Of a stretch of 63,893 bases of DNA, positions 3,822-63,300 are shown one piece after another (the stretch's first letter is position 1; every line of letters starts with the position of its first letter). The stretch lies in NCBI GenBank assembly GCA_934096405.1, contig CAKOLW010000005.1, positions 1-63,893 of the forward strand, in the 5' to 3' direction. The notes beneath the pieces are model-generated. The model saw only the letters and a program-made list of their open reading frames with translations. It was not told the origin of the DNA and did no database searches. Source of the DNA: an uncultured Bacilli bacterium (lineage in GTDB: Bacteria; Bacillota_I; Bacilli_A; RF39; UBA660). The translations under genes were made by a program, and so were the position numbers.

Positions 3822-4721
3822 ATGTTAATATTAAAGAATGTTACTAAATATTATGGAAGTAATTTAGCTGTTGATAATTTGTCTTTTGAAGTTAAAGATG
3901 GCGAAATTTTTGGATTATTGGGAGTTAATGGTGCTGGTAAAACAACTACATTTAGAATGATAACGGGATTACTTGATAAAACAGAAGGAGAAATTACTTT
4001 TAATGGAAAAAAGATAGATTATAGTGTTACTGATAAAATAGGGTTTTTAGCTGAAGAAAGATGTTTATTAACTAAGTTAACTGTATTTGAACAAGCAAAG
4101 TTCTATGGTGGACTTAAGAGTATGAGTGAAAAAGATATTGAAAGTAGATTAGATTATTTATTAGATAAGCTAGAAATAAGTGATTATAAGAATAAAAAGA
4201 TTAAAGAGTTATCTAAAGGTAATCAACAAAAAGTTCAGTTTATTATGGCTATTTTACATAAACCTAAGTTACTAATATTAGATGAACCTTTTAGTGGATT
4301 GGATCCTATAAATATAGAGTTATTTAAAAATTTAATTTTAGAATTAAAGCATGAAGGAACTAGTATAATATTCTCTAGTCATAGAATGGATCATGTAGAG
4401 TATTTTTGTGAATCATTAGTTATATTAGTTAAAGGTAAGACTGTTTTACAAGGTAATTTAAAGAAAATTAAAGAAGAGTATAGAAAGAAAAATATATTAA
4501 TAAATGGGAGTATTGATACTGAAGAAATTAAAAAAGTTAATGGAGTGTTGGATGTTCAAAAGAATGGACAAGATTATTCTGTTAAGATATTAGATGATTC
4601 TAAAGTAGAGAATGTGTTTAAGTATGTTAGTAAATGTAAGAATATTACTAAGTTTATAGTTGAAGAACCTTCTTTGAATGAAATATTTATTGAAAGAGTA
4701 GGTGGATCTTATGAAAAATAA
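3822..4721 (+). CDS. ABC transporter ATP-binding protein
   Basis: Walker A GVNGAGKTT, signature LSKGNQQK, Walker B LLILDEP. Confidence 0.9.
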   Translation: MLILKNVTKYYGSNLAVDNLSFEVKDGEIFGLLGVNGAGKTTTFRMITGLLDKTEGEITFNGKKIDYSVTDKIGFLAEERCLLTKLTVFEQAKFYGGLKSMSEKDIESRLDYLLDKLEISDYKNKKIKELSKGNQQKVQFIMAILHKPKLLILDEPFSGLDPINIELFKNLILELKHEGTSIIFSSHRMDHVEYFCESLVILVKGKTVLQGNLKKIKEEYRKKNILINGSIDTEEIKKVNGVLDVQKNGQDYSVKILDDSKVENVFKYVSKCKNITKFIVEEPSLNEIFIERVGGSYEK

Positions 4722-6051: not shown

Positions 6052-6312
6052 CTTGTTTAGTATAATTATGTTAAGAGTAGAGATACTATGAAAAAATTAT
6101 ATGCTACAAATTTTGATAAAACATTTTATAAAAATGAAAACGATTTAGAGATAAAAGAAATATATTTTCGATTGTTACTGGATGTTGTGTGAAATGTTTT
6201 GATGTTGTTAAGAAATGATTTGATTAAATTTTATTATAAAGATAAAAGATAAAAGTATACTTGAAGAATTAAGCTAATTTATTGTATAATTTTGGTAGGA
6301 AGGATGATTTAT

Positions 6313-6990
6313 ATGAAGAAAGAAAATATTTTATGGGGATTAGGATTTATTATAGTAGGAATTTTGGTGTTGGTTAATGCATTAGGAATTCTAGAAATTA
6401 ATGTATTTTTTAAAGGATGGTGGACTTTATTTATTATAGTACCTTGTTTTGTTAATATTTTTAAAGATAATGATAAGACTGCGAGTATTATAGGAACTGT
6501 GTTTGGTATACTTTTATTGCTTGCTGTGAGAGATGTTATTAATTTTGATTTGTTATGGAAAATATTATTACCTTTAGTATTAATCATTATAGGGTTATCT
6601 CTTATATTTAAAGACAAAGTTAGTGATAAGGTAAAAGATGAAATTAAAAAGTTAAATAAAAATAGTAAAGATGAGTATACTGCTACTTTTTCAGGACAAG
6701 ATTTAAATTTCGATGATGAAGAATTTAAGGGATGTGAACTTAATGCTATATTTGGTGGTATTAAATGTGATATAAAGAATGCTAAGTTAAAAGATGATGT
6801 AGTTATTAATGCTTCTTCTATATTTGGTGGTATTACTTTATATGTTCCAAAAGATGTTAATGTAAAGGTAGTTAGTAATTCTATTTTTGGTGGAGTTTCT
6901 GGTAATTATAATAAAAATAAAAGTGATAAAAAAGGTAAAACTATCTATGTAAATGCTACTTGTTTATTTGGAGGAGTTGAAATTAAATGA
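6313..6990 (+). CDS. LiaF-like cell-wall-active antibiotic response membrane protein
   Basis: N-terminal TM bundle plus a C-terminal repeated FGG motif (IFGGIKCDI, IFGGITLYVP, IFGGVSG, LFGGVEIK). The ATG at 6313 has an aggaagg SD. Confidence 0.7.
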   Translation: MKKENILWGLGFIIVGILVLVNALGILEINVFFKGWWTLFIIVPCFVNIFKDNDKTASIIGTVFGILLLLAVRDVINFDLLWKILLPLVLIIIGLSLIFKDKVSDKVKDEIKKLNKNSKDEYTATFSGQDLNFDDEEFKGCELNAIFGGIKCDIKNAKLKDDVVINASSIFGGITLYVPKDVNVKVVSNSIFGGVSGNYNKNKSDKKGKTIYVNATCLFGGVEIK

Positions 6991-7815: not shown

Positions 7816-7889
7816 TACCCTGTAGCCAAGTGGTAAGGCAGTGGATTCTGACTCCACCACCATAGGTTCGAATCCTATCAGGGTAACCA
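7816..7889 (+). tRNA. tRNA-Gln (anticodon CTG)
   Basis: Hand-folded cloverleaf: acceptor TACCCTG/CAGGGTA (U1:A72 as in bacterial tRNA-Gln), anticodon arm GTGGA-TTCTGAC-TCCAC, T arm ATAGG-TTCGAAT-CCTAT, encoded CCA. Confidence 0.9.
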
Positions 7890-21325: not shown

Positions 21326-22273
21326 ATGAATAATATAACTATTATAGGCGGTGGAGTTTTAGGTAGTCAAATAGCTTTTCAAAGTGCATACTCTGGAAAG
21401 AAAGTTACTATTTGGTTAAGAAGTAAAGAAAGTATAGATAGAACTACACCTAAATTAGAACATATTAAATCTTGTTATATAGAAGCTATTGAAGAAATGG
21501 ATAAATCTATAAATAATTGGTGTAATGGTATAAGTGATGTAGATAATTTTAATAAAGAAGAATGTTTAAAGAAAGTAGAAGATGCTTTTGTTAATATTAG
21601 AATAGAATTAGATATGAAAGAAGCTTTAAAAGATGCTGATTTAGTTATAGAATCTATGACAGAAGATATTAATACTAAGAAAGATTTATTTATTAAAATG
21701 AGTAAGTTATTAGACGAGAAGACTATTTTAGTTACTAATTCTTCTACTATATTGCCAAGTAAATTAAGAAACTATACTGGAAGAAGTGATAAGTTTTTAA
21801 GTTTACATTTTGCGAATACTATTTGGAAAAATAATATAGTGGAAGTTATGAAACATGATAAAACTAGTGATGATAGTTTTAATAAAGTAATAGAATTTTC
21901 TAAGGAAATTAGAATGATACCGCTTCCTTTACTTAAAGAGAAAAGTGGGTACTTACTTAATTCTATGTTAATTCCACTTTTGTTTTCAGCCTTGGATTTA
22001 TATGTCAATGGAGTAAGTGATTTTAAAAGTATTGATGAAGCTTGGACTAAAGGTACTGGTTCACCTAAAGGACCTTTTAGAATATTAGATACTGTTGGAC
22101 TTAAGACTGCATATGAAATAGTTAATATGTATGTTAAAACGCCTTCCTTTTTAGCACCTTATAATTTTAAGGGAATGGCTAAGTTGTTGAAACAATATAT
22201 TGATGAAGGCAAGTTAGGTGAAAGTACTGGGATTGGGTTTTATGAATATGTGAAAAGTGATAAAAATAATTGA
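21326..22273 (+). CDS. 3-hydroxyacyl-CoA dehydrogenase family NAD-binding protein
   Basis: Rossmann motif ITIIGGGVLGSQIA, conserved HFANTIW and GPFRILDTVGL segments. Confidence 0.8.
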   Translation: MNNITIIGGGVLGSQIAFQSAYSGKKVTIWLRSKESIDRTTPKLEHIKSCYIEAIEEMDKSINNWCNGISDVDNFNKEECLKKVEDAFVNIRIELDMKEALKDADLVIESMTEDINTKKDLFIKMSKLLDEKTILVTNSSTILPSKLRNYTGRSDKFLSLHFANTIWKNNIVEVMKHDKTSDDSFNKVIEFSKEIRMIPLPLLKEKSGYLLNSMLIPLLFSALDLYVNGVSDFKSIDEAWTKGTGSPKGPFRILDTVGLKTAYEIVNMYVKTPSFLAPYNFKGMAKLLKQYIDEGKLGESTGIGFYEYVKSDKNN

Positions 22274-22288
22274 AGTTGTTTGAATAAT

Positions 22289-22470
22289 TTGATAAAATTG
22301 ATACATAAGATATGAAGGAGTAATTGAACTATGAGAGAAATAATTTTCTTCGAATTAGGTACCAAACTTGGTACGAATTTCGGGGGGGGTTAAAAATAAT
22401 GCCTCTCATAGTTTTTTCGTTATATTAAATTCATAGGCATCAGTCTATGAGTTTTTTAGTGCTCTAAAAA
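22289..22470 (+). promoter_or_regulatory. Conserved leader element, copy 1 (SD + sORF ending in G8 + two terminator-like hairpins)
   Basis: Aligns by eye over ~150 nt with 61758..61975. G8 at 22382..22389. Long-range pairing of ctatgagag (22329..22337) with ctctcatag (22403..22411), then T6. Second hairpin tcatag/ctatga (22431..22450), then T6. Confidence 0.7.
22331..22393 (+). CDS. Candidate leader sORF (20 aa, MREIIFFELGTKLGTNFGGG)
   Basis: AAGGAG SD at 22315..22320, 10 nt before the ATG. Conserved counterpart at 61833..61898. Translation is unproven. Confidence 0.4.
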   Translation: MREIIFFELGTKLGTNFGGG

Positions 22471-22483
22471 ATGGAGGCAAAAG

Positions 22484-24013
22484 ATGAAGGAAAGAAAATA
22501 TGCTTTGTTTGGAATAATTACAACAATAATTTTAATAATTGGAACTACACTAGCATACTTTAAATTTCAAGTATTTGGAAATAAAAAAGTAATAAATGTG
22601 GAATCAACTAACTTACAAATAATATTTAATAATGGAGATAGTACATTTGAAGGAAATGCTTTAGAACCAGGTAATTATGATGAAATAAAGACATTTAGTG
22701 TTAAAAACGAAACAGATACAGAGTTTAAATATAATATAATAATAAAAGATTTAATAAATACATTTGTAACAAAAGGTTATTTAGTATATAAAATAACTAA
22801 TACATCAAATAATGGAGGATACAGTATGAATGATTTTGAAGATATACCAAAATCATCAATAGCTTTAGATATAGGACTAGCATATAATATAACTATTCCA
22901 TCAGGAGTAACACAGGATTATACTATAGAGATAAAGTATTTAAATGATTCAAGTTATGACCAATCAGATGATATGGAAAAAGAAGTATCAGGTAGTATTT
23001 ATATATCAAAAGGGACAGAACCAACATTTATAACAAAAATATTAGAACAGAATAAAACAATAAGTGAAAGAACTAATTTTAAAGTAACCAATACAGAAAC
23101 AACAACAGGAACAATATATAAAACAAATAAAACAGAAGATGGAAGTGAAGTATATTATTATTCAGGTAATACAATAGATAATTGGGTTAAGTTTGGAAAG
23201 TATACAACAGATGATACTTCAAGCAAGAAATTATGGGAATCTGGAGACGATATGTACTGGAGAATAATAAGAACAAATGAAGATGGGAGTGTAAGACTAT
23301 TATATTCTGGAACGAGTCCAGATACAACAGAAGGCTATATAGGAACCTCAGTATTTAGTAATTCAACTAAAGATCCATTGTATGTAGGTTATATGTATGG
23401 AACAAGTGGATCTTTAGAAAGTAATAGAACAAATGAAAATGATAGTACAATAAAAACTGTAATTGACAAATGGTATCAAAATAATTTACTTACTGATTAT
23501 GATAAATATATAAGTAAAGATGCAATATATTGTAATGATAGAAATGCTAGTACTTACGCTTTAGAAGGAACTTATCATTTTAATACATACTCTAGAATTG
23601 AACAAGGCTCATCTACTTTAAAATGCGAAAATAAAAGTGATTCATTTAGTTATAATAATACAAGTGCAAAATTAAAATATCCTATAGCATTAGTAACTGC
23701 GGATGAATTAAATTTTGCTGGGGGATATCTTGAAATTGCAGCTGAAGGAGCTTATTTCACAGTTAATAGGAATAATCTTTCAATTACTAATACACTATTT
23801 TGGTGGACAATGAGCCCTTGGGGACTATATACTACAATGGCAGATATTTTAAGAGCAAATAATAAGGGAACTATTGGAGGAAATGGCTCATTTATTAATA
23901 CTATAGCTGTAAGACCTGTTATATCTATATCTTCATGTGCAATAGTTAAATCTGGTAATGGTACGGCTGAGGAACCATATGAAATTGATTATACTAATAG
24001 TTGCAAGGGTTAA
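22484..24013 (+). CDS. Secreted protein: SipW/TasA-type signal peptide and camelysin/TasA-like N-domain fused to the C-domain shared with 1..1149
   Basis: The N-terminus MKERKYALFGIITTIILIIGTTLAYF matches the SipW-cognate signal pattern (..GGTxAYF). The C-terminal ~330 aa are paralogous to 1..1149. SD ggagg. Confidence 0.8.
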   Translation: MKERKYALFGIITTIILIIGTTLAYFKFQVFGNKKVINVESTNLQIIFNNGDSTFEGNALEPGNYDEIKTFSVKNETDTEFKYNIIIKDLINTFVTKGYLVYKITNTSNNGGYSMNDFEDIPKSSIALDIGLAYNITIPSGVTQDYTIEIKYLNDSSYDQSDDMEKEVSGSIYISKGTEPTFITKILEQNKTISERTNFKVTNTETTTGTIYKTNKTEDGSEVYYYSGNTIDNWVKFGKYTTDDTSSKKLWESGDDMYWRIIRTNEDGSVRLLYSGTSPDTTEGYIGTSVFSNSTKDPLYVGYMYGTSGSLESNRTNENDSTIKTVIDKWYQNNLLTDYDKYISKDAIYCNDRNASTYALEGTYHFNTYSRIEQGSSTLKCENKSDSFSYNNTSAKLKYPIALVTADELNFAGGYLEIAAEGAYFTVNRNNLSITNTLFWWTMSPWGLYTTMADILRANNKGTIGGNGSFINTIAVRPVISISSCAIVKSGNGTAEEPYEIDYTNSCKG

Positions 24014-29814: not shown

Positions 29815-30150
29815 ATATCTTAGGTAAACGCTGCATATAATTATGTAGAGGAAAGTCCATACTCGCACATTGCTGAGATGCATGTAGTGATCATGCTAGA
29901 GAAAAAAATAACTCTAGGTAGCAAATGCTAACGGCTTCGAAAAAGAGAAGAACTCTCTTGATTAGATATAAAAGTGCCATAGTGACGATGTCCTTTAGGA
30001 ATAAGGGAAGTGGAACGAGGTAAACCCCATGAGCGAGAAACCCAAAATTGGTAGGGGAGTCTTCACAAATGAAATGAAAAGAGTGAAGAAGTTATTAACT
30101 AGATAAATGTTTACCACCCGTAAGGGTACAGAAAATGGCTTATTAGATAT
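29815..30150 (+). ncRNA. rnpB: RNase P RNA, type B (Firmicutes type)
   Basis: Universal motifs GAGGAAAGTCCATACTCGCAC, AGTGCCATAGTGACGA, GGTAAACCCCATGAGCGAGAAACCC, ACAGAAAATGGCTTA. P1 pairing of aatatct with agatatt at the ends. Confidence 0.9.
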
Positions 30151-56263: not shown

Positions 56264-56285
56264 ATTTGGAGCAGGTGATGGGAAT
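56264..56285. repeat. attR: 22-bp direct repeat overlapping the tRNA-Gly 3' end
   Basis: Identical to 48700..48721. Confidence 0.85.
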
Positions 56286-56340
56286 CGGACCCACGTTATT
56301 AGCTTGGAAGGCTAGAGTTCTACCATTAAACTACACCTGC
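56267..56340 (-). tRNA. tRNA-Gly (anticodon TCC)
   Basis: Minus-strand sequence GCAGGTG-TA-GTTT..GAAC-T-CTAGC-CTTCCAA-GCTAA-TAAC-GTGGG-TCCGATT-CCCAT-CACCTGC-T-CCA. Very similar to Bacillus tRNA-Gly(UCC). Confidence 0.9.
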
Positions 56341-58324: not shown

Positions 58325-59911
58325 ATGAAATTAATTAGTTTAATAATAAATAATAATACTGCTATTGTAGAGATAATTAATAAACGTTTTAGTAGAGATA
58401 TTAACAATAATGTTATGAATAACAATACTCTTTTATATACTTCATATTTTATAAGAAAGAATAAAGAAGTAATTAATGAAATATTAGAAATTAAGTATAT
58501 AGAAAATTATATATATAAAGATTTTGAAAGCTTTTATGTATTAGGTAGTATAGTAAGTGGGAGTAGTGTAACTTTTGATATAGAAGAATCTCTTACTGTT
58601 AAGGCTTGTAATATATTAGTTAGTATGAAAAGACTTAAATATGTAAAATGTTATTTTATGCCTAGTGATTATGTTCATAAATTAGCAGAAAAAAATATTT
58701 CAGTTAATTTTACTAATGATTATAGTTTTACTAGTGATTTTATAAATAGTAATGGATTTAAAAATTTAAAAAGTTTATATTATAAAAAAATTATTTATTT
58801 TTATAGAGAAGAGGATGTTTATAATAATTTAGAAGATTTTTTGAGAGTAAATATTTCTTTGAAAGTTATACATTTATATTTTTATTCTACTAAATCTATA
58901 AAATATATTACTGAAGAATTAACTAAGTATAAAGAAAATGAAGTTAATATTTATATACATCTTAATGATTTTAATAAAGAAACTATTAAAAATGATGTTA
59001 ATAACTTAAGAGATATTAACAAAAAATTTAATAAAAAAGATAAAAAAATAAAGATTATATATAGTAATGATTTTTTTAATAACAATATTTTTAAAGAACT
59101 TACTTTAAATACTATTAAATTATGTTTAGTGTTAATTATGTATTTGGGATTAATATTAATTATATCTAATAAATATCATGAATATTTGGCTCTTGTAGAA
59201 CTTAGAAAATTGGAAATGTCTTTAATAGAAAATAATAGTCAAGTAAATGACAATATAGATGAAATAGATGATATACAAGAAATAGTGGAACCTGAGCCAG
59301 ATAATAATGAAGAACCAGTTGATGAAGAACCTAAGTATGTAAACTATTATGCAAATATACCGACAACTTTTGACAAACTTTTACAAATTAATAAAAATGT
59401 AGTGGGATGGGTAACTGTTAATAATACTAAGGCTAATTATCCTGTTTTACAAGGTCCTTATAATGAATTTTATAATACTCATGATATTTATGATAGAGAA
59501 GTAATTACTGGATGGATTTATATGGATTCTAGAAATAATAGTAAAGAGTTAGATCAAAATACTATAATTTATGGACATAATTTAATAAGTGGGTATATGT
59601 TTGGAGATTTAAAGAGTACTACTAATTATAGTTGGTATACTAATCCAGAAAATAAATATATTACTTTTAATACATTAGATAGAGAAATGAAATGGGAGAT
59701 TTTTTCTATATACAGAATAGATTATACTACTGATTATTTAAAGACTAATTTCTTTAATGATAAACAGTATAATGAATTTATAGATTTAATTAAAAATAGA
59801 AGTATATATAATTTTAATGTTAATGTTAATCCAACTGATAAAATATTGACTTTATCTACTTGTTCAGGTAGTTCTAGAAGATTAGTAATTCATGCAAAAT
59901 TAGTAAATTAA
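58325..59911 (+). CDS. Class B sortase with a ~250-aa N-terminal cytoplasmic extension
   Basis: C-terminal ~190 aa: VVGWVTV..TKANYPVLQG, IIYGHN, LTLSTCS, RLVIHAKL (SrtB hallmarks). Preceded by a TM (LCLVLIMYLGLILIISN), an acidic linker and a long unassigned N-domain. Confidence 0.8.
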   Translation: MKLISLIINNNTAIVEIINKRFSRDINNNVMNNNTLLYTSYFIRKNKEVINEILEIKYIENYIYKDFESFYVLGSIVSGSSVTFDIEESLTVKACNILVSMKRLKYVKCYFMPSDYVHKLAEKNISVNFTNDYSFTSDFINSNGFKNLKSLYYKKIIYFYREEDVYNNLEDFLRVNISLKVIHLYFYSTKSIKYITEELTKYKENEVNIYIHLNDFNKETIKNDVNNLRDINKKFNKKDKKIKIIYSNDFFNNNIFKELTLNTIKLCLVLIMYLGLILIISNKYHEYLALVELRKLEMSLIENNSQVNDNIDEIDDIQEIVEPEPDNNEEPVDEEPKYVNYYANIPTTFDKLLQINKNVVGWVTVNNTKANYPVLQGPYNEFYNTHDIYDREVITGWIYMDSRNNSKELDQNTIIYGHNLISGYMFGDLKSTTNYSWYTNPENKYITFNTLDREMKWEIFSIYRIDYTTDYLKTNFFNDKQYNEFIDLIKNRSIYNFNVNVNPTDKILTLSTCSGSSRRLVIHAKLVN

Positions 59912-59929: not shown

Positions 59930-61699
59930 TTAATCTTCAGTTTTATTTATCATCCAACTATTAAATATGTCAGCATTAGCACTTTCTGGAGGTGGTGATG
60001 CTTTTTCCATTTTAACTATCATTGGAATTTTAAGTATTCTACCAAATGCAACACATGTGCCTGGTTGTAAGCTTTTTTGTTTTTCTATTATATCTGCACT
60101 CATGTTAGGTATCATTCTTGTTATGTAGTCTAGGTCTTCTGGATGTGTTATTTTAAATATTATAAAGTTGTCTGCTTGGCTTATAACATTACTATTTAAG
60201 TCTGTGGGTCTTTGAGTAATTAAGTCTAATAGTACTCCATGTTTTCTACCTTCTTTTGCAACTCTTTCAAATATATTATAACCTAGTAAGTCCACATCAT
60301 CATTTTGTATAACATATCTATGTGCTTCTTCTAAAATTATATGTAGTGGTATACTAGCTCTTGGTTCATTTACTTTACCAAATGCTAAAAAAAGTCTAGC
60401 AAATATTTTTGTTACAGTTCTTGCAAATCTATCATCTACATCTTCTAAGTTAATGTTTATAACTTGAGCTTTTTTATTATCTTTTGTAGTTACTAGATAA
60501 GCTATAAATTCTTTTATACTGTTGTATTTTTTATCAGTAAAGAAAATACTATTAGAACTATTTATTAGATTATGTAGTTTTACTTTTAAACTAATTGCTT
60601 CATCATACATGTCTGGATTTAATAAGTATCTTTCACTAAATAGGGTAAAGTTTAATGCTACTTCTAATTCTTTTAGACCATATGTTACGTTAGATGTATC
60701 TATATTCCATTTTTTATCATCTTGTATAAAACTTTCTATGTATTCAGCTATTATCGTTCTTTCTGCAAATCTTCCTTCACTGTCTATATCAAAACAATGT
60801 CTGAATACTCTTGTAAAACCTACACCTGGGATTATTGCATTTAAATTAATTTGATCTGTGTATGTATTGGCAACTATATCAAATATTTGGTCTCTTATTT
60901 TAGCACTTGTTTGATTAGTATACATTATTGAAGTAATTGCTTTAGCTAATAAGTGATTTTTGTATTCTATAACTTCTTTAGAGTTTGAAGAAAATATTTT
61001 GGCAAGTTCAATAGCACTTTCTACTATAGATATTTGGCTAAATTTAGTAGCGTCTAGTATGTTTAATATATCATCTATAGTTAATAATGATACTGGTATT
61101 TGTAGTTTTTCATTACCTTCATTGATTAATCTTTTATTTGTAGTTATTAATTTGTAGTGTAAGTTTTCGTTTATTTTGTTTAAGTCTTTGAAAGCATTAA
61201 TGTATTCTCCATATGAATCAAATATGAACATATTAGCTTTATATGGAAGAGCTTGCATGTTATATACGTTTTGTATTATTCTACATATTCCATATGTTTT
61301 ACCACTACCAGAATTACCAAATATAGCAGAGTGATTACTAAATAAGTCATTTAAGTTAACACTTACAGGATAATCTTTATATAATGGACTTACTCCTAGA
61401 GTAAAACTCATTTTGTCTCCACCTACTAATACATGTAATTCTTTTTCATTTATTATTCTAACTTTGGCATCTAAACTAGGTTTTTTTATTAAACCTCCTA
61501 CAAAGTTAGTATCATTTATTTCTCCTAAAAAATTTATTTTAACACTAGAACCATCTATGTCTTCAACTTCTCCTAGAATTCTTTTATCTTTGTCTTCAAA
61601 AATAACATGTAAGTTTAAGATATCTCCTAGATTTTTGGCATCTATGGTTAGATTTACTATTGCATAATTTTTATTTATTGCTTTAATATTGCCAAACAT
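59930..61699 (-). CDS. HerA/DUF87-type ATPase (FtsK-HerA superfamily), stand-alone
   Basis: N-terminal barrel-like region (AIVNL...LHVIFED...ILGEVEDI), Walker A GNSGSGKTYG, Walker B HIILEEAHRY, KEGRKHGVLLDLITQRPTDL. Confidence 0.8.
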   Translation of the reverse strand: MFGNIKAINKNYAIVNLTIDAKNLGDILNLHVIFEDKDKRILGEVEDIDGSSVKINFLGEINDTNFVGGLIKKPSLDAKVRIINEKELHVLVGGDKMSFTLGVSPLYKDYPVSVNLNDLFSNHSAIFGNSGSGKTYGICRIIQNVYNMQALPYKANMFIFDSYGEYINAFKDLNKINENLHYKLITTNKRLINEGNEKLQIPVSLLTIDDILNILDATKFSQISIVESAIELAKIFSSNSKEVIEYKNHLLAKAITSIMYTNQTSAKIRDQIFDIVANTYTDQINLNAIIPGVGFTRVFRHCFDIDSEGRFAERTIIAEYIESFIQDDKKWNIDTSNVTYGLKELEVALNFTLFSERYLLNPDMYDEAISLKVKLHNLINSSNSIFFTDKKYNSIKEFIAYLVTTKDNKKAQVININLEDVDDRFARTVTKIFARLFLAFGKVNEPRASIPLHIILEEAHRYVIQNDDVDLLGYNIFERVAKEGRKHGVLLDLITQRPTDLNSNVISQADNFIIFKITHPEDLDYITRMIPNMSADIIEKQKSLQPGTCVAFGRILKIPMIVKMEKASPPPESANADIFNSWMINKTED

Positions 61700-61774
61700 A
61701 ACTACACCTCTTTATTCTAAAATAATGTTACCATAAGTCTAGGAAAGTTTCAATTAATTTTTGATAAAATTAGA

Positions 61775-61803
61775 TTGAATAGTGTAGTAGATTATGATAT
61801 AAT
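61775..61803 (+). promoter_or_regulatory. Sigma-A-type promoter in front of leader copy 2
   Basis: TTGAAT, 17 nt spacer, TATAAT. About 14 nt upstream of the AAGGAG SD of the sORF. Confidence 0.6.
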
Positions 61804-61832
61804 TTTCATAGAATGTAAGGAGTAAAAGAACT

Positions 61833-61898
61833 ATGAAAGAAGTAATTCCTTTTGAAGCAAGTACCAAATTTGATACGAATTTCGGGGGGGGTTATTAG
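61833..61898 (+). CDS. Candidate leader sORF (21 aa, MKEVIPFEASTKFDTNFGGGY)
   Basis: AAGGAG at 61817..61822, 10 nt before the ATG. Same arrangement as copy 1. A +1 G change in the G8 tract would fuse it in frame to 61922..62635. Confidence 0.4.
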   Translation: MKEVIPFEASTKFDTNFGGGY

Positions 61899-61921
61899 AA
61901 AATAACTCTCATAGTTTTTTC

Positions 61922-62635
61922 GTGAAATTAAGTTCATGGGCGTTTGTCTATGAATTTTTTGCACAGCAAAAAATTCATAGATTTAAAAAAATTAAAAAAG
62001 TTATATTGGCACTGGGGGCGTGCTTTCTATGTCTGTTAAATATGAAAGCTGAATGCTCTTATAAAGAATTAAAAGAATTAAATGCGTTTGCTTCTCATGT
62101 GGAAACTAGTTATAAGTATAATGAAGAAACTGGTTTATTTGATTTAACAGTTACTAATTTAGGAGATAAAGCTTTTATTAGTGCTGGTATAAATGAATAT
62201 TATTTTCCTACAGATGGAGTGGTTACAATAAATAATTTGAATTTGGGAATGTCATATAAATATAATGTTTTTCCTTTATCGGCAGGTGATTGTGGTGGTG
62301 AACTATTAAGGGTTTTATATATTACTACTCCCTATAAGAATAATTTTTATGGTTCCTTAGCTTGTACTGGACATGAAGATTTAAGTGTTTGTAATTCTGA
62401 ATTTCTAGATTATAAGCTTAGTAAACAAACTTTTTTAAAATTGTTAGAAAAGAAGCCAAACGAAGAAGTACAAGATGATGACAAGAAAGATGAAGTAGTT
62501 AAACCTACATTTAAAGAACAAGCTATAGAGTTTATAGAAAATAATTATTTAAAAGTGTTATTACCACTTATTTCATTAATACTATCTATAAGTGTATTTA
62601 AGGTTGTGTTAAGAAAAGTAAAACATGGTATTTAG
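61922..62635 (+). CDS. Secreted, C-terminally tail-anchored Cys-containing protein (start uncertain)
   Basis: Signal-like KKIKKVILALGACFLCLLNMKA, a ~130-aa domain with 5 Cys, an acidic linker and a C-terminal TM plus basic tail. The GTG at 61922 has no SD and lies inside the leader hairpins. Confidence 0.6.
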   Translation: MKLSSWAFVYEFFAQQKIHRFKKIKKVILALGACFLCLLNMKAECSYKELKELNAFASHVETSYKYNEETGLFDLTVTNLGDKAFISAGINEYYFPTDGVVTINNLNLGMSYKYNVFPLSAGDCGGELLRVLYITTPYKNNFYGSLACTGHEDLSVCNSEFLDYKLSKQTFLKLLEKKPNEEVQDDDKKDEVVKPTFKEQAIEFIENNYLKVLLPLISLILSISVFKVVLRKVKHGI

Positions 62636-62649
62636 AAAGAGGTGTTAAA

Positions 62650-63300
62650 ATGTTGAAGAAAAAATTATTGTTTTTAATAATCATGTGTATAACTGGCATG
62701 AGCGTATTAAATGCTGATTGTGAAGAAGCTATGGAAGAAGGAAAATATTTAATATATTTTGTTGATAAAGCAATTGATACAAGCTATGATAATATACTTA
62801 ATATTTATATGCCTAAAGATGTTGTATATTTTAAAGTGAAAAATGATTTTAATAATGAAAATAAAACTTATACATCTATTGATAAAGATGATTCAAATCT
62901 TATTAAAATTAAAGCACCTACAAATTATGAAAATATTAAGTATACAATTGAGGTTTATTATGCAGATGCGTCTTGTGGAGTTGAACCAATTAATACATAT
63001 ACAGTTGAAACAGGAAAGTACAATGCTTTATCTGATATGAAAATTTGTTGGGACAAATTATATTTAGATGTTTGCGATACTAATTATGATGAAAAACAAA
63101 TAGAAAAATATAAAGATGTTAAAACAGAAGAAGAATTAACTAAAATAGTTAACAAACAATTAAAAGAGTATAATAGGGCTAATACAAAGCCAATTGATGT
63201 TGTTAAAAAATACTATTTGTATGTTTTAATTCCATTTTTGATTGTTAGTTGTTATTATATTCCTAAAATTATAATTGCTAAGAGAAAGAAGGGAGATTAA
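62650..63300 (+). CDS. Secreted, C-terminally tail-anchored Cys-containing protein
   Basis: Signal peptide MLKKKLLFLIIMCITGMSVLNA. Same overall layout as 61922..62635 (Cys-containing domain, charged linker, C-terminal TM, basic tail). SD agaggtg. Confidence 0.7.
   Translation: MLKKKLLFLIIMCITGMSVLNADCEEAMEEGKYLIYFVDKAIDTSYDNILNIYMPKDVVYFKVKNDFNNENKTYTSIDKDDSNLIKIKAPTNYENIKYTIEVYYADASCGVEPINTYTVETGKYNALSDMKICWDKLYLDVCDTNYDEKQIEKYKDVKTEEELTKIVNKQLKEYNRANTKPIDVVKKYYLYVLIPFLIVSCYYIPKIIIAKRKKGD

Follow-up and report, generated by a model that had tools for sequence, protein, structure and literature searches.

In the trp and his leader peptides, and in the erm- and vmlR-type antibiotic-responsive leaders of Firmicutes, the position of a ribosome on a leader open reading frame (ORF) decides whether a terminator forms. 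In Streptococcus gallolyticus, the pil1 and pil3 loci are controlled by phase-variable attenuation, in which a leader ORF containing GCAGA repeats is followed by a stem-loop terminator (Danne et al. 2014, PMC3894217). In-frame pil1 leaders stop about 39 nucleotides (nt; range 30-40) before the terminator and give low expression, and out-of-frame gain or loss of repeats produces a longer leader on which the ribosome blocks the hairpin and transcription reads through (PMC3894217). Across pil1 and pil3, expression is low where the leader stops at least 28 nt before the terminator and high where it stops in or after it, and the pil1 mechanism was demonstrated with start-codon, stop-insertion and terminator-deletion mutants (PMC3894217). 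Here, we describe two leaders in a 63,893-nt stretch of DNA from an uncultured Bacilli bacterium (contig CAKOLW010000005.1, assembly GCA_934096405.1; the whole stretch is hereafter the window), each of which carries a short ORF (sORF) ending in a run of eight G. We propose that each is probably a self-contained phase-variable leader-peptide attenuator that follows pil1/pil3-like logic with a homopolymer as its repeat. The finding is real and biologically meaningful, and the existence of the switch itself is well supported by the hypermutability of the G tract, the geometry of the reading frames around it, and the frame in which leaders without a tract have become fixed.

The two modules, of about 190 nt each, lie at 22270-22457 (copy A) and 61775-61960 (copy B). 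Both consist of a promoter, a Shine-Dalgarno (SD) sequence, the sORF, a long hairpin (T1, built of helices P1, P2 and P3) and a second, terminator-like hairpin (T2). Their features, with folds given as minimum free energy (MFE) predictions, are as follows.

Copy A:
22270 to 22298, plus strand: sigma-70-like promoter found by promoter scan (TTGAAG, 17 nt, extended -10 TGaTAAAAT)
22315 to 22320, plus strand: Shine-Dalgarno sequence of the sORF, AAGGAG, 10 nt 5' of the ATG, read from the sequence
22331 to 22393, plus strand: leader sORF of 20 codons plus TAA, MREIIFFELGTKLGTNFGGG, the short frame at G8 and predicted to be OFF
22382 to 22389, plus strand: G8 tract, the slippage-prone candidate switch element
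22326 to 22417, plus strand: predicted long hairpin T1 with its U6 (22412-22417), from the MFE fold (-34.6 kcal/mol), the RNAalifold consensus and covariation in P1
22326 to 22337 with 22403 to 22414, plus strand: helix P1 of the predicted fold, sequestering the sORF AUG
Within T1, plus strand: predicted inner helices P2 (pyrimidine tract with the G run) and P3 (apical GGTACC/GGTAC hairpin)
22427 to 22457, plus strand: predicted terminator T2, a 12-bp hairpin (22427-22454, -12.7 kcal/mol) with U6 at 22452-22457, from the fold and hairpin covariation
22484 to 24013, plus strand: downstream gene for a 509-amino-acid (aa) secreted or surface protein, with its own SD and ATG (94 nt past the tract)

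Copy B:
61775 to 61803, plus strand: sigma-70-like promoter (TTGAAT, 17 nt, extended -10 TGaTATAAT)
61817 to 61822, plus strand: Shine-Dalgarno sequence AAGGAG, read from the sequence, with the ATG at 61833
61833 to 61898, plus strand: leader sORF of 21 codons plus TAG, MKEVIPFEASTKFDTNFGGGY, the short frame at G8 and predicted to be OFF
61884 to 61891, plus strand: G8 tract
61825 to 61920, plus strand: predicted long hairpin T1 (P1/P2/P3) with U6, from the MFE fold (-27.4 kcal/mol) and the consensus structure
61930 to 61960, plus strand: predicted terminator T2, hairpin at 61930-61957 (-12.4 kcal/mol) with U6 at 61955-61960
61899 to 62635, plus strand: continuation of the G9 frame through T1 and T2 into the ORF at 61922-62635, predicted to give a 267-aa fusion

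A reading of this DNA made without database searches (the sequence-only reading) had listed an AAGGAG, an ATG, an sORF, a G8 tract, complementary arms, a T6 and a second hairpin in each copy, and all are in place in both. The complementary arms of copy A are CTATGAGAG (22329-22337) and CTCTCATAG (22403-22411), the second running directly into T6 (22412-22417); in copy B, CTCTCATAG lies at 61906-61914 and its T6 at 61915-61920. The copies have 80% mean column identity in alignment, and a 34-nt degenerate core pattern matches only these two places in the window, where shuffled sequences predict 0 matches. The two G8 tracts are indeed the longest G runs present, since no other run of G, and no run of C, reaches 6 in the window (GC content 25.2%), and base-composition arithmetic puts the chance expectation of a single G8 at about 0.004. 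GGG, which had been presumed rare, makes up 4.6% of glycine codons in 30 long ORFs. Both leaders fold more stably than their shuffled counterparts (-52.1 kcal/mol, z = -7.6 for copy A; -41.5 kcal/mol, z = -3.95 for copy B). Because each copy has a folded leader and its own promoter, which the sequence-only reading had not listed, we take the unit to be promoter, sORF, two terminator-like structures and gene. The earlier proposal of a cis-acting leader common to both loci is supported.

The G tract of these leaders is hypermutable. At locus B, a contig from another sample (L128) is 99.6% identical to window positions 61699-63185, with 5 mismatches over 1488 nt, and the single indel between the two is the G run, G9 versus G8. 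The 267-aa product predicted for the G9 allele (MKEVIPFEASTKFDTNFGGGLLENNSHSFFVKLSSW...) is the protein called on two European Nucleotide Archive (ENA) contigs (P0136). At locus A, a 99.95% identical strain (L130) carries G8, and a more divergent ortholog (L023) carries G9, with a 32-aa sORF called there. A further comparison comes from a related leader found in six samples with an identical 859-aa protein, in which the tract reads G8, G9, G9, G8, G6 and G9 and the remaining leader is identical. Across the 13.3 kb that these six samples share at 99.2-99.4% identity, the 18 A/T runs of 7 or more contain one other internal indel, a T8/T7 difference in one sample (L025, alignment column 10555). 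Over all leaders, tracts range from 6 to 11 G. Slippage of the G tract with phase variation, one of three mechanisms floated in the sequence-only reading, is thus matched by length polymorphism at copy B (G8/G9), at the copy A ortholog (G9) and in the related leader (G6/G8/G9).

Changes in tract length move the end of the sORF between two distinct positions. In leaders generally, two of the three frames stop 1-19 nt past the tract; the third passes through the 3' arm of T1 and ends at T2, usually at a TAG in the T2 5' arm, sometimes in the T2 loop and sometimes just beyond the U-tract. When distances are counted from the first nucleotide of the T2 5' arm, stop positions are bimodal, at -28 or less or at -5 or more, with none between. 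In copy A, the G8 frame stops at 22391, 36 nt before T2; a G9 allele would encode 32 aa and stop at 22426-22428, at the base of T2, and a G7 allele would encode 34 aa and stop at a TAG inside the T2 5' arm, which holds TAG at 22434-22436. Two of the three tract-length classes of copy A are therefore predicted to be ON. In copy B, G7 and G8 stop early, and G9 passes both predicted terminators into the ORF at 61922-62635. The 5' arm of T2 here carries TGG in place of TAG, a change that keeps a G.U pair and leaves the long frame unstopped, and ORF 61922-62635 has neither an SD nor an ATG of its own, with ATT where homologs (MKK.., preceded by their own SD) have the start methionine. A fusion is possible in copy B because the TAG of T2 has become TGG, and the start of the downstream gene has been lost as well; the fused frame is also open in a 94.7% identical strain. 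Gene callers give products of 197, 214, 237 and 267 aa for this gene.

Leaders in which the tract has been lost or interrupted ('locked' leaders, such as GTGGGGTGGG, CATGAGGC, CATAGGATGC, GGGGTATGG, GGGGGAGGGG and one internal deletion) are strongly biased toward the long frame, which is found in 11 of 13 (L115 was counted by hand). Leaders with an intact tract have the long frame in 12 of 40 cases, near the one third expected from random sampling of states. The difference gives a Fisher p of 0.0009, or about 0.02 if the losses represent some 8 independent events. This bias speaks for the reading frame as the property that counts, with the long frame as the probable expressing state. A naturally locked long-frame variant occurs in L072 (about 2300-2434), where an internal deletion takes out the P2/P3 hairpin and the entire G run, and P1, T2 and an open 20-codon sORF ending in the T2 loop are retained.

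The window leaders belong to a large repeat family. A pattern scan over one genome per species found 19 copies in the gut metagenome-assembled genome (MAG) CAKOLN01 ('uncultured Bacilli'), together with a single copy in a MAG from another Firmicute and a pair in Gastranaerophilales; a divergent 20th copy in CAKOLN01 was recovered by BLAST, for at least 20 in that genome. Each CAKOLN01 copy has its own promoter, SD, sORF (MKELILFE[LS]STKLGTNFGGGYY, then stop), T1 and T2, followed by the SD and ATG of a gene, and the downstream proteins are 510-610 aa long, carry an N-terminal signal-anchor and fall into two N-terminal types; the 509-aa protein of the window is a member of their family. The promoters of the CAKOLN01 copies have the layout seen in copies A and B. 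The copies inside CAKOLN01 are 96-100% identical, and their tracts comprise 17 G8 and 3 G9; 3 G9 of 20 is not a significant bias toward the predicted OFF state (one-sided binomial p about 0.06). Dozens more leaders lie 5' of homologous secreted-protein genes in human-gut metagenomes. Among the divergent leaders at these homolog loci, each type has sORF peptides unrelated to those of the others (such as MKAYQLVQNKVQMGG.., MKNNSALVQNKVLGGG.. and MTNNYVNKLSYISSPIVQNKVLNGGG..), a GTAC-N8-GTAC hairpin stands directly 5' of a G6-G11 run, and a strong final terminator precedes the gene. Despite the unrelated peptides, each of the 40 intact leaders scored has an SD and an ATG and keeps its sORF open. 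The window-type peptides are themselves fairly similar (M[KR]E..F.E..TK..TNFGGG). An intact G run of 6 or more is found in 40 of 71 distinct upstream regions of family genes, and across about 750 kb of related loci every one of the 50 scorable G runs of 7 or more sits in this architecture. A search for further copies and a covariance model, which the sequence-only reading had suggested, thus yielded many copies with conserved structure in related genomes; a model built from window-type leaders finds exactly two strong matches in the window and 30 weak matches elsewhere, all of them on the coding strand directly 5' of a family gene. The proposal that the two window loci form a co-regulated regulon is not supported, as each copy appears to be an independent stochastic switch and the module fronts at least 20 genes in one genome, along with several unrelated families.

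Several individual copies bear on how the family varies and moves. On the reverse strand of L013 (plus coordinates about 1393-1545), a CAKOLN01 copy has an unrelated sORF interior, MKLNNFFHIKTIVCYGGGYY, and retains the pyrimidine-tract:G-run pairing, the apical hairpin, the frame, G8, T1 and T2. L006 and the second copy on L021 (G run near 6173-6210) have identical promoters, leaders and upstream flanks joined to different genes, of the MKFIKTK... and MKEKKY... types, which suggests recombination or gene conversion among cassettes inside one genome. In Gastranaerophilales (Melainabacteria) MAGs, G10 tracts lie before or inside type IV pilin-like genes (L010 at 4498-4507 and 6287-6296, and also 2584-2593; L004 on the reverse strand, match 6452-6492). 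At L010:4498 the G11 frame reads MKKYSNFGGGGNRLSHSSKG and then FTLAEVLIALGVIG, which places the tract within the prepilin leader. L010:6287 and L004 have a 13-codon sORF (M[GE]YNGKFGGGAIL, then stop) that is joined to the pilin when read in the G11 frame. These leaders resemble the window leader in their 'NFGGG' / TTCGGGG context and in having an AUG:CAU helix.

Rfam searches of the window and 11 related loci gave no match at the leaders at gathering thresholds. Scans at permissive E-values gave only sub-threshold, chance-level matches, of which TEG147 was the sole recurring one. The earlier statement that the leader fits no known riboswitch or leader class therefore stands as far as Rfam is concerned, but a functional precedent does exist in the literature (PMC3894217). 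A motif scan of viral contigs returned 0 matches. We considered and set aside a riboswitch or T-box, given that no family matched and that the G run is the only hypervariable site, and a miniature inverted-repeat transposable element (MITE) or other palindromic repeat, given that the hairpin is strand-specific by virtue of its many G.U pairs, that each copy has its own promoter, and that the module always lies on the coding strand directly 5' of a gene.

In the predicted consensus for window-type leaders, the start-codon region forms P1 with CUCUCAUAG, after which U6 comes next, and P2, P3 and T2 complete the structure. The sORF AUG pairs with a CAU about 75 nt downstream in the MFE of 5 of 6 leader types. 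The flanking pairs of P1 covary, as CUAUGAGAG/CUCUCAUAG versus ACAUGAAAAAC/GUUUUUCAUGU versus AUAUGAAAAAC/GUUUUUCAUAU, and in an alignment anchored on the predicted partner 78.8% of P1 cells are paired, versus 34-60% with the partner slid, with 33 cells double-changed. Of the 10 pairs of T2, which surround an invariant ATAG, 3 have compensatory changes. P2 joins the pyrimidine tract to the G run, with U/C changes that keep pairing, and the G run can alternatively pair with a downstream CUCUC to form a terminator-like hairpin. The MFE folds of one leader are nearly unchanged across its G6, G8 and G9 alleles, which argues against a purely structural read-out of tract length.

We propose a model for these leaders in which we infer both the coupling of ribosome to terminator and the polarity of ON and OFF. 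A constitutive-looking promoter would drive a leader RNA whose strong SD serves a short ORF with G8 near its 3' end, and slipped-strand mispairing during replication would alter the tract by one or more G. In the short frames, the ribosome would halt a few codons past the tract, at least 28 nt before T2, and T2 would form and end transcription (OFF); both window copies would be OFF at G8. In the long frame (G9 in either copy, or G7 in copy A), the ribosome would cross the 3' arm of T1 and halt at or in the 5' arm of T2, which would keep the terminator from forming and allow RNA polymerase to read into the gene (ON). In copy B, the long frame of a G9 allele would itself enter the gene to produce the 267-aa fusion, making this copy a translational ON/OFF switch that clears its own terminators. 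T1, which pairs the sORF start codon, probably terminates or pauses untranslated leader transcripts; a ribosome halted at +1 to +11 would presumably already overlap the T1 3' arm at +15. The sequence-only reading had suggested that sORF translation modulates the terminator. We favor this as the best reading of the data, with the frame set by tract length as the signal in place of any sensing of rare glycine codons.

Several points weigh against this model. Termination at T1 and T2 and translation of the sORF are predictions, and ribosome-polymerase coupling in these Bacilli is assumed; transcription-translation coupling is weak in many Firmicutes, such that ribosome-mediated antitermination would need pausing of RNA polymerase. 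Tract lengths were taken from metagenome assemblies, not from reads. Copy A, in which G7 and G9 are both long, differs from other leaders and would make a less clean switch. The rule that one frame is open to T2 is only suggestive, being weakly improbable by chance in AT-rich sequence: a shuffle test gives per-leader P values of 0.48-0.95 and a combined p of about 0.05 over some 8 semi-independent types. Two of the 13 locked leaders are in the short frame, and the leaders are related by descent, which means that the counts given above are not independent.

Taken together, we judge it unlikely that one of five rival explanations is correct in place of the attenuator model. The one to which we give most weight, itself a small one, is that the tract is phase-variable and acts at the RNA or DNA level, through leader folding, RNA polymerase pausing or mRNA stability, and not through the sORF frame. 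Poly-G tracts in 5' untranslated regions or promoters do tune expression elsewhere, as at Moraxella uspA1 and Treponema tpr, and the conserved pairing of the G run with the upstream pyrimidine tract, the alternative G run:CUCUC hairpin and the weakness of the open-frame statistic by itself would all fit this view. However, beyond the near-constancy of the folds from G6 to G9, such a mechanism leaves unexplained why SD, ATG and an open sORF are conserved around peptides that are not, why stop positions are bimodal, and why locked leaders favor the long frame; nor does it account for copy B and the Gastranaerophilales fusions, in which only the frame can matter. Non-heritable recoding, in which RNA polymerase slippage or ribosomal frameshifting on G8/G9 yields a constant low fraction of long-frame product in every cell, seems to us less probable again. 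Transcriptional slippage can occur on homopolymers of at least 8, and the rarity of GGG (4.6%) could favor frameshifting, but the length alleles that distinguish samples and paralogs are heritable differences in DNA, and the fixation of locked leaders in the long frame points to that frame as the expressed state. Slippage may coexist with the attenuator switch and is not needed for it.

A conventional sensing leader, whether a Gly-tRNA/GGG attenuator or a ligand- or protein-binding RNA in which variation of the G run is incidental, would be in keeping with three consecutive glycine codons, two of them rare GGG, and with tandem terminators in a very stable conserved fold. We nonetheless consider it very improbable: it matches no Rfam family, the downstream genes encode secreted proteins and not glycine metabolism, there is no classical alternative antiterminator pairing, the frame and context in which the tract is read differ in other leader types, no site besides the tract is hypervariable, and locked leaders do without the G run altogether. 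We attach the least probability of all to two further ideas, in equal measure. One holds that the product of the module is a small peptide with a function of its own (as signal, bacteriocin or regulator) or a stand-alone small RNA of about 110-150 nt and that the genes are merely adjacent, for which its own promoter, SD, ORF and terminators and the similarity of window-type peptides could be cited. Yet other leader types, and one CAKOLN01 paralog (MKLNNFFHIKTIVCYGGGYY), encode unrelated peptides, the module always lies on the coding strand directly 5' of a gene, and the sORFs of copies A and B, compared in the alignment, differ by 7 non-synonymous and 1 synonymous changes; the signalling peptide entertained in the sequence-only reading is disfavored for the same reason, as ORF, frame and G run persist where the peptides are wholly different. 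The other attributes the copies to recent duplication or gene conversion and the G-length differences to homopolymer sequencing or assembly errors. The 96-100% identity of copies in one MAG and the tendency of Illumina assemblies to miscall long homopolymers speak for it, but assembly error is an unlikely source of differences of up to 3 nt at one site from several assemblers and studies, with lengths from 6 to 11 and 17 of the 18 A/T runs (7 or longer) stable over the shared 13.3 kb. In addition, architecture and covariation are kept in very divergent leaders and hosts, and even one G8 in the window would be rare by chance (about 0.004).

We raise more tentatively, and regard as doubtful in its full form, a broader extension of the attenuator model. 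Here the leader would be a mobile modular contingency cassette, spread by recombination before dozens of surface-protein genes per genome and before unrelated genes such as the copy B operon, with each copy switching independently and being read out through attenuation. P1 and its U-tract might then represent a new checkpoint that aborts leaders lacking a pioneer ribosome, and the NFGGG leader of Gastranaerophilales might reflect either a common origin from a phase-variable signal-peptide region or cross-phylum transfer. If this is true, the cassettes could generate combinatorial surface repertoires comparable to the antigenic variation of mycoplasma or Neisseria.

The genes downstream of the two window leaders are unrelated. 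The 509-aa copy A protein shares with its relatives a signal-anchor at the N terminus and domains rich in beta structure, and it has more than 6,800 homologs at E <= 1e-5, none of them named; some longer ones show a faint match to DUF6273. The sequence-only reading had called this gene TasA-like. Searches of Pfam, NCBIfam and PDB sequences with the protein gave no match, and an AlphaFold2 (AF2) model (predicted local distance difference test, pLDDT, 66) searched with Foldseek gave only weak beta-sandwich matches, with TasA absent among the 50 matches listed. The label is not established, because there is no profile, sequence or structural match; an N-terminal '...GTTLAYF' motif is, we assume, the only resemblance to the TasA/camelysin-like (SipW-dependent) class. 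In an alignment of proteins P0003-P0120 (A2), longer homologs of 800-890 aa have the C-terminal domain (YWRIIRTN...GYMYGTSGS...VRPVISLK) in two tandem copies, of which the window protein has one. Papers found for DUF6273 reportedly concern phage receptor-binding proteins hypermutated by diversity-generating retroelements.

The copy B operon (61922-63300), whose products are small secreted proteins anchored at the C terminus, adjoins a divergently transcribed gene for a HerA/FtsK-like ATPase (DUF87), with a class B sortase gene beyond. The sortase ORF and the ATPase gene lie next to copy B at 58325-59911 and 59930-61699 on the minus strand. The sortase ORF encodes 528 aa, with a class B domain at residues 347-516 (TIGR03064, 157.5 bits) and a long N-terminal region with a predicted membrane segment, and the ATPase neighbor is conserved in other strains (L117, L118). 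In other strains (L129, 1-300; P0135/P0137), the same mature protein as that of copy B carries a different signal peptide, MKKILFTFLLCFTGILIMKAEC..., behind a promoter, SD and start codon (ATG or TTG) of conventional type, with no poly-G leader; it follows that the cassette was swapped in by recombination. Elsewhere in the window, positions 29816-30147, 7816-7889 and 56267-56340 (minus strand) hold a class B RNase P RNA (249.7 bits), a tRNA-Gln(CUG) and a tRNA-Gly(UCC), respectively. The RNase P type is consistent with a Bacillota host, and by wobble rules we take the tRNA-Gly(UCC) to be the sole tRNA in the window able to read GGG.

If the attenuator model is correct, a mechanism shown only in S. 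gallolyticus in the literature that we searched would be widespread in human-gut Firmicutes, and would control a very large unnamed secreted family of more than 6,800 homologs, with at least 20 switchable copies in one small genome. Many uncultured commensals would then vary their surface stochastically, with a bearing on evasion of immunoglobulin A (IgA) and phage and on strain-level ecology. There are practical consequences as well: gene callers mis-annotate such loci (for example as 32-aa, 197-aa, 237-aa or 267-aa products), homopolymer length in metagenome reads could provide an in situ read-out of ON and OFF states, and the compact cassette (about 190 nt) might serve synthetic biology as a part that switches stochastically and heritably.

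The leader shares its switch logic most closely with pil1/pil3. Both have a promoter, a repeat-bearing leader ORF with its own SD and start codon, and a stem-loop terminator upstream of surface-structure genes; in both, the tract varies out of frame and stop positions separate around 28 nt; and in both, several loci occur per genome with roughly one third of states ON, as predicted here for the family. They differ in the repeat, which is a G homopolymer of 6-11 nt here and about 13-22 GCAGA units in pil1, with no GCAGA repeats in the window leaders, and in the tandem structures found here, where a long AUG-sequestering hairpin with a U-tract precedes T2. Unlike pil1, the leaders described here occur in up to 20 or more copies per genome, before a multigene family and unrelated genes, and some of them, such as copy B, would be direct translational fusions. 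Their hosts are uncultured, very AT-rich gut Bacilli and other Firmicutes, and they are known from sequence alone, in contrast to the experimental pil1 system. Our search found no homopolymer version of the pil1 mechanism in the literature, although it covered only open-access articles and its negative outcome is not proof of absence.

Among other contingency loci, Neisseria pilC is a classical poly-G/C example. Poly-G switches within coding regions are described in Campylobacter jejuni (PMC11955535) and reportedly occur in the pilus clusters of Bifidobacterium breve (PMC9187656). At such loci, slippage of G8-G11 tracts causes reversible frameshift ON/OFF switching of surface structures, and copy B, with its predicted G9 fusion, and the Gastranaerophilales pilin genes are alike in this respect. 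The tract of copy B lies within the ORF that it would regulate, as at the coding-region loci; that of copy A and most family members lies instead in a separate 20-codon ORF, with a read-out that would be transcriptional, through the terminators. In the trp/his and erm/vmlR attenuators, the signal is tRNA charging or drug stalling, where here it would be a heritable change in DNA length; unlike trp and his, these leaders have no 2:3 antiterminator, and the ribosome itself would mask the terminator arm. TEG147 (Rfam RF03535), a Staphylococcus aureus cis-regulatory RNA, is similar in having an AUGAGAG 5' arm that pairs with ..UCAU.. ahead of a U-tract. The window copies score 24.1 and 20.3 bits against its gathering threshold of 56.1, the match covers P1 and the tail with a 67-nt interior unmatched, and they are not members of that family.

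Clostridioides difficile offers a different route to a similar outcome. Its cwpV gene is controlled by a leader-terminator phase switch that operates by DNA inversion. The flgB flagellar switch is reported to use DNA inversion with a Rho-dependent read-out (PMC7446863). The C. difficile switches and the leaders described here both appear to impose stochastic, heritable ON/OFF control of surface proteins within the leader, after initiation; in C. difficile the variable element is a DNA segment inverted by a recombinase, whereas here it is a homopolymer in a translated sORF, by our model. Thus, this leader follows a switch logic that is already known, in a form that is undescribed as an RNA or leader family, widespread, and present in multiple copies per genome.

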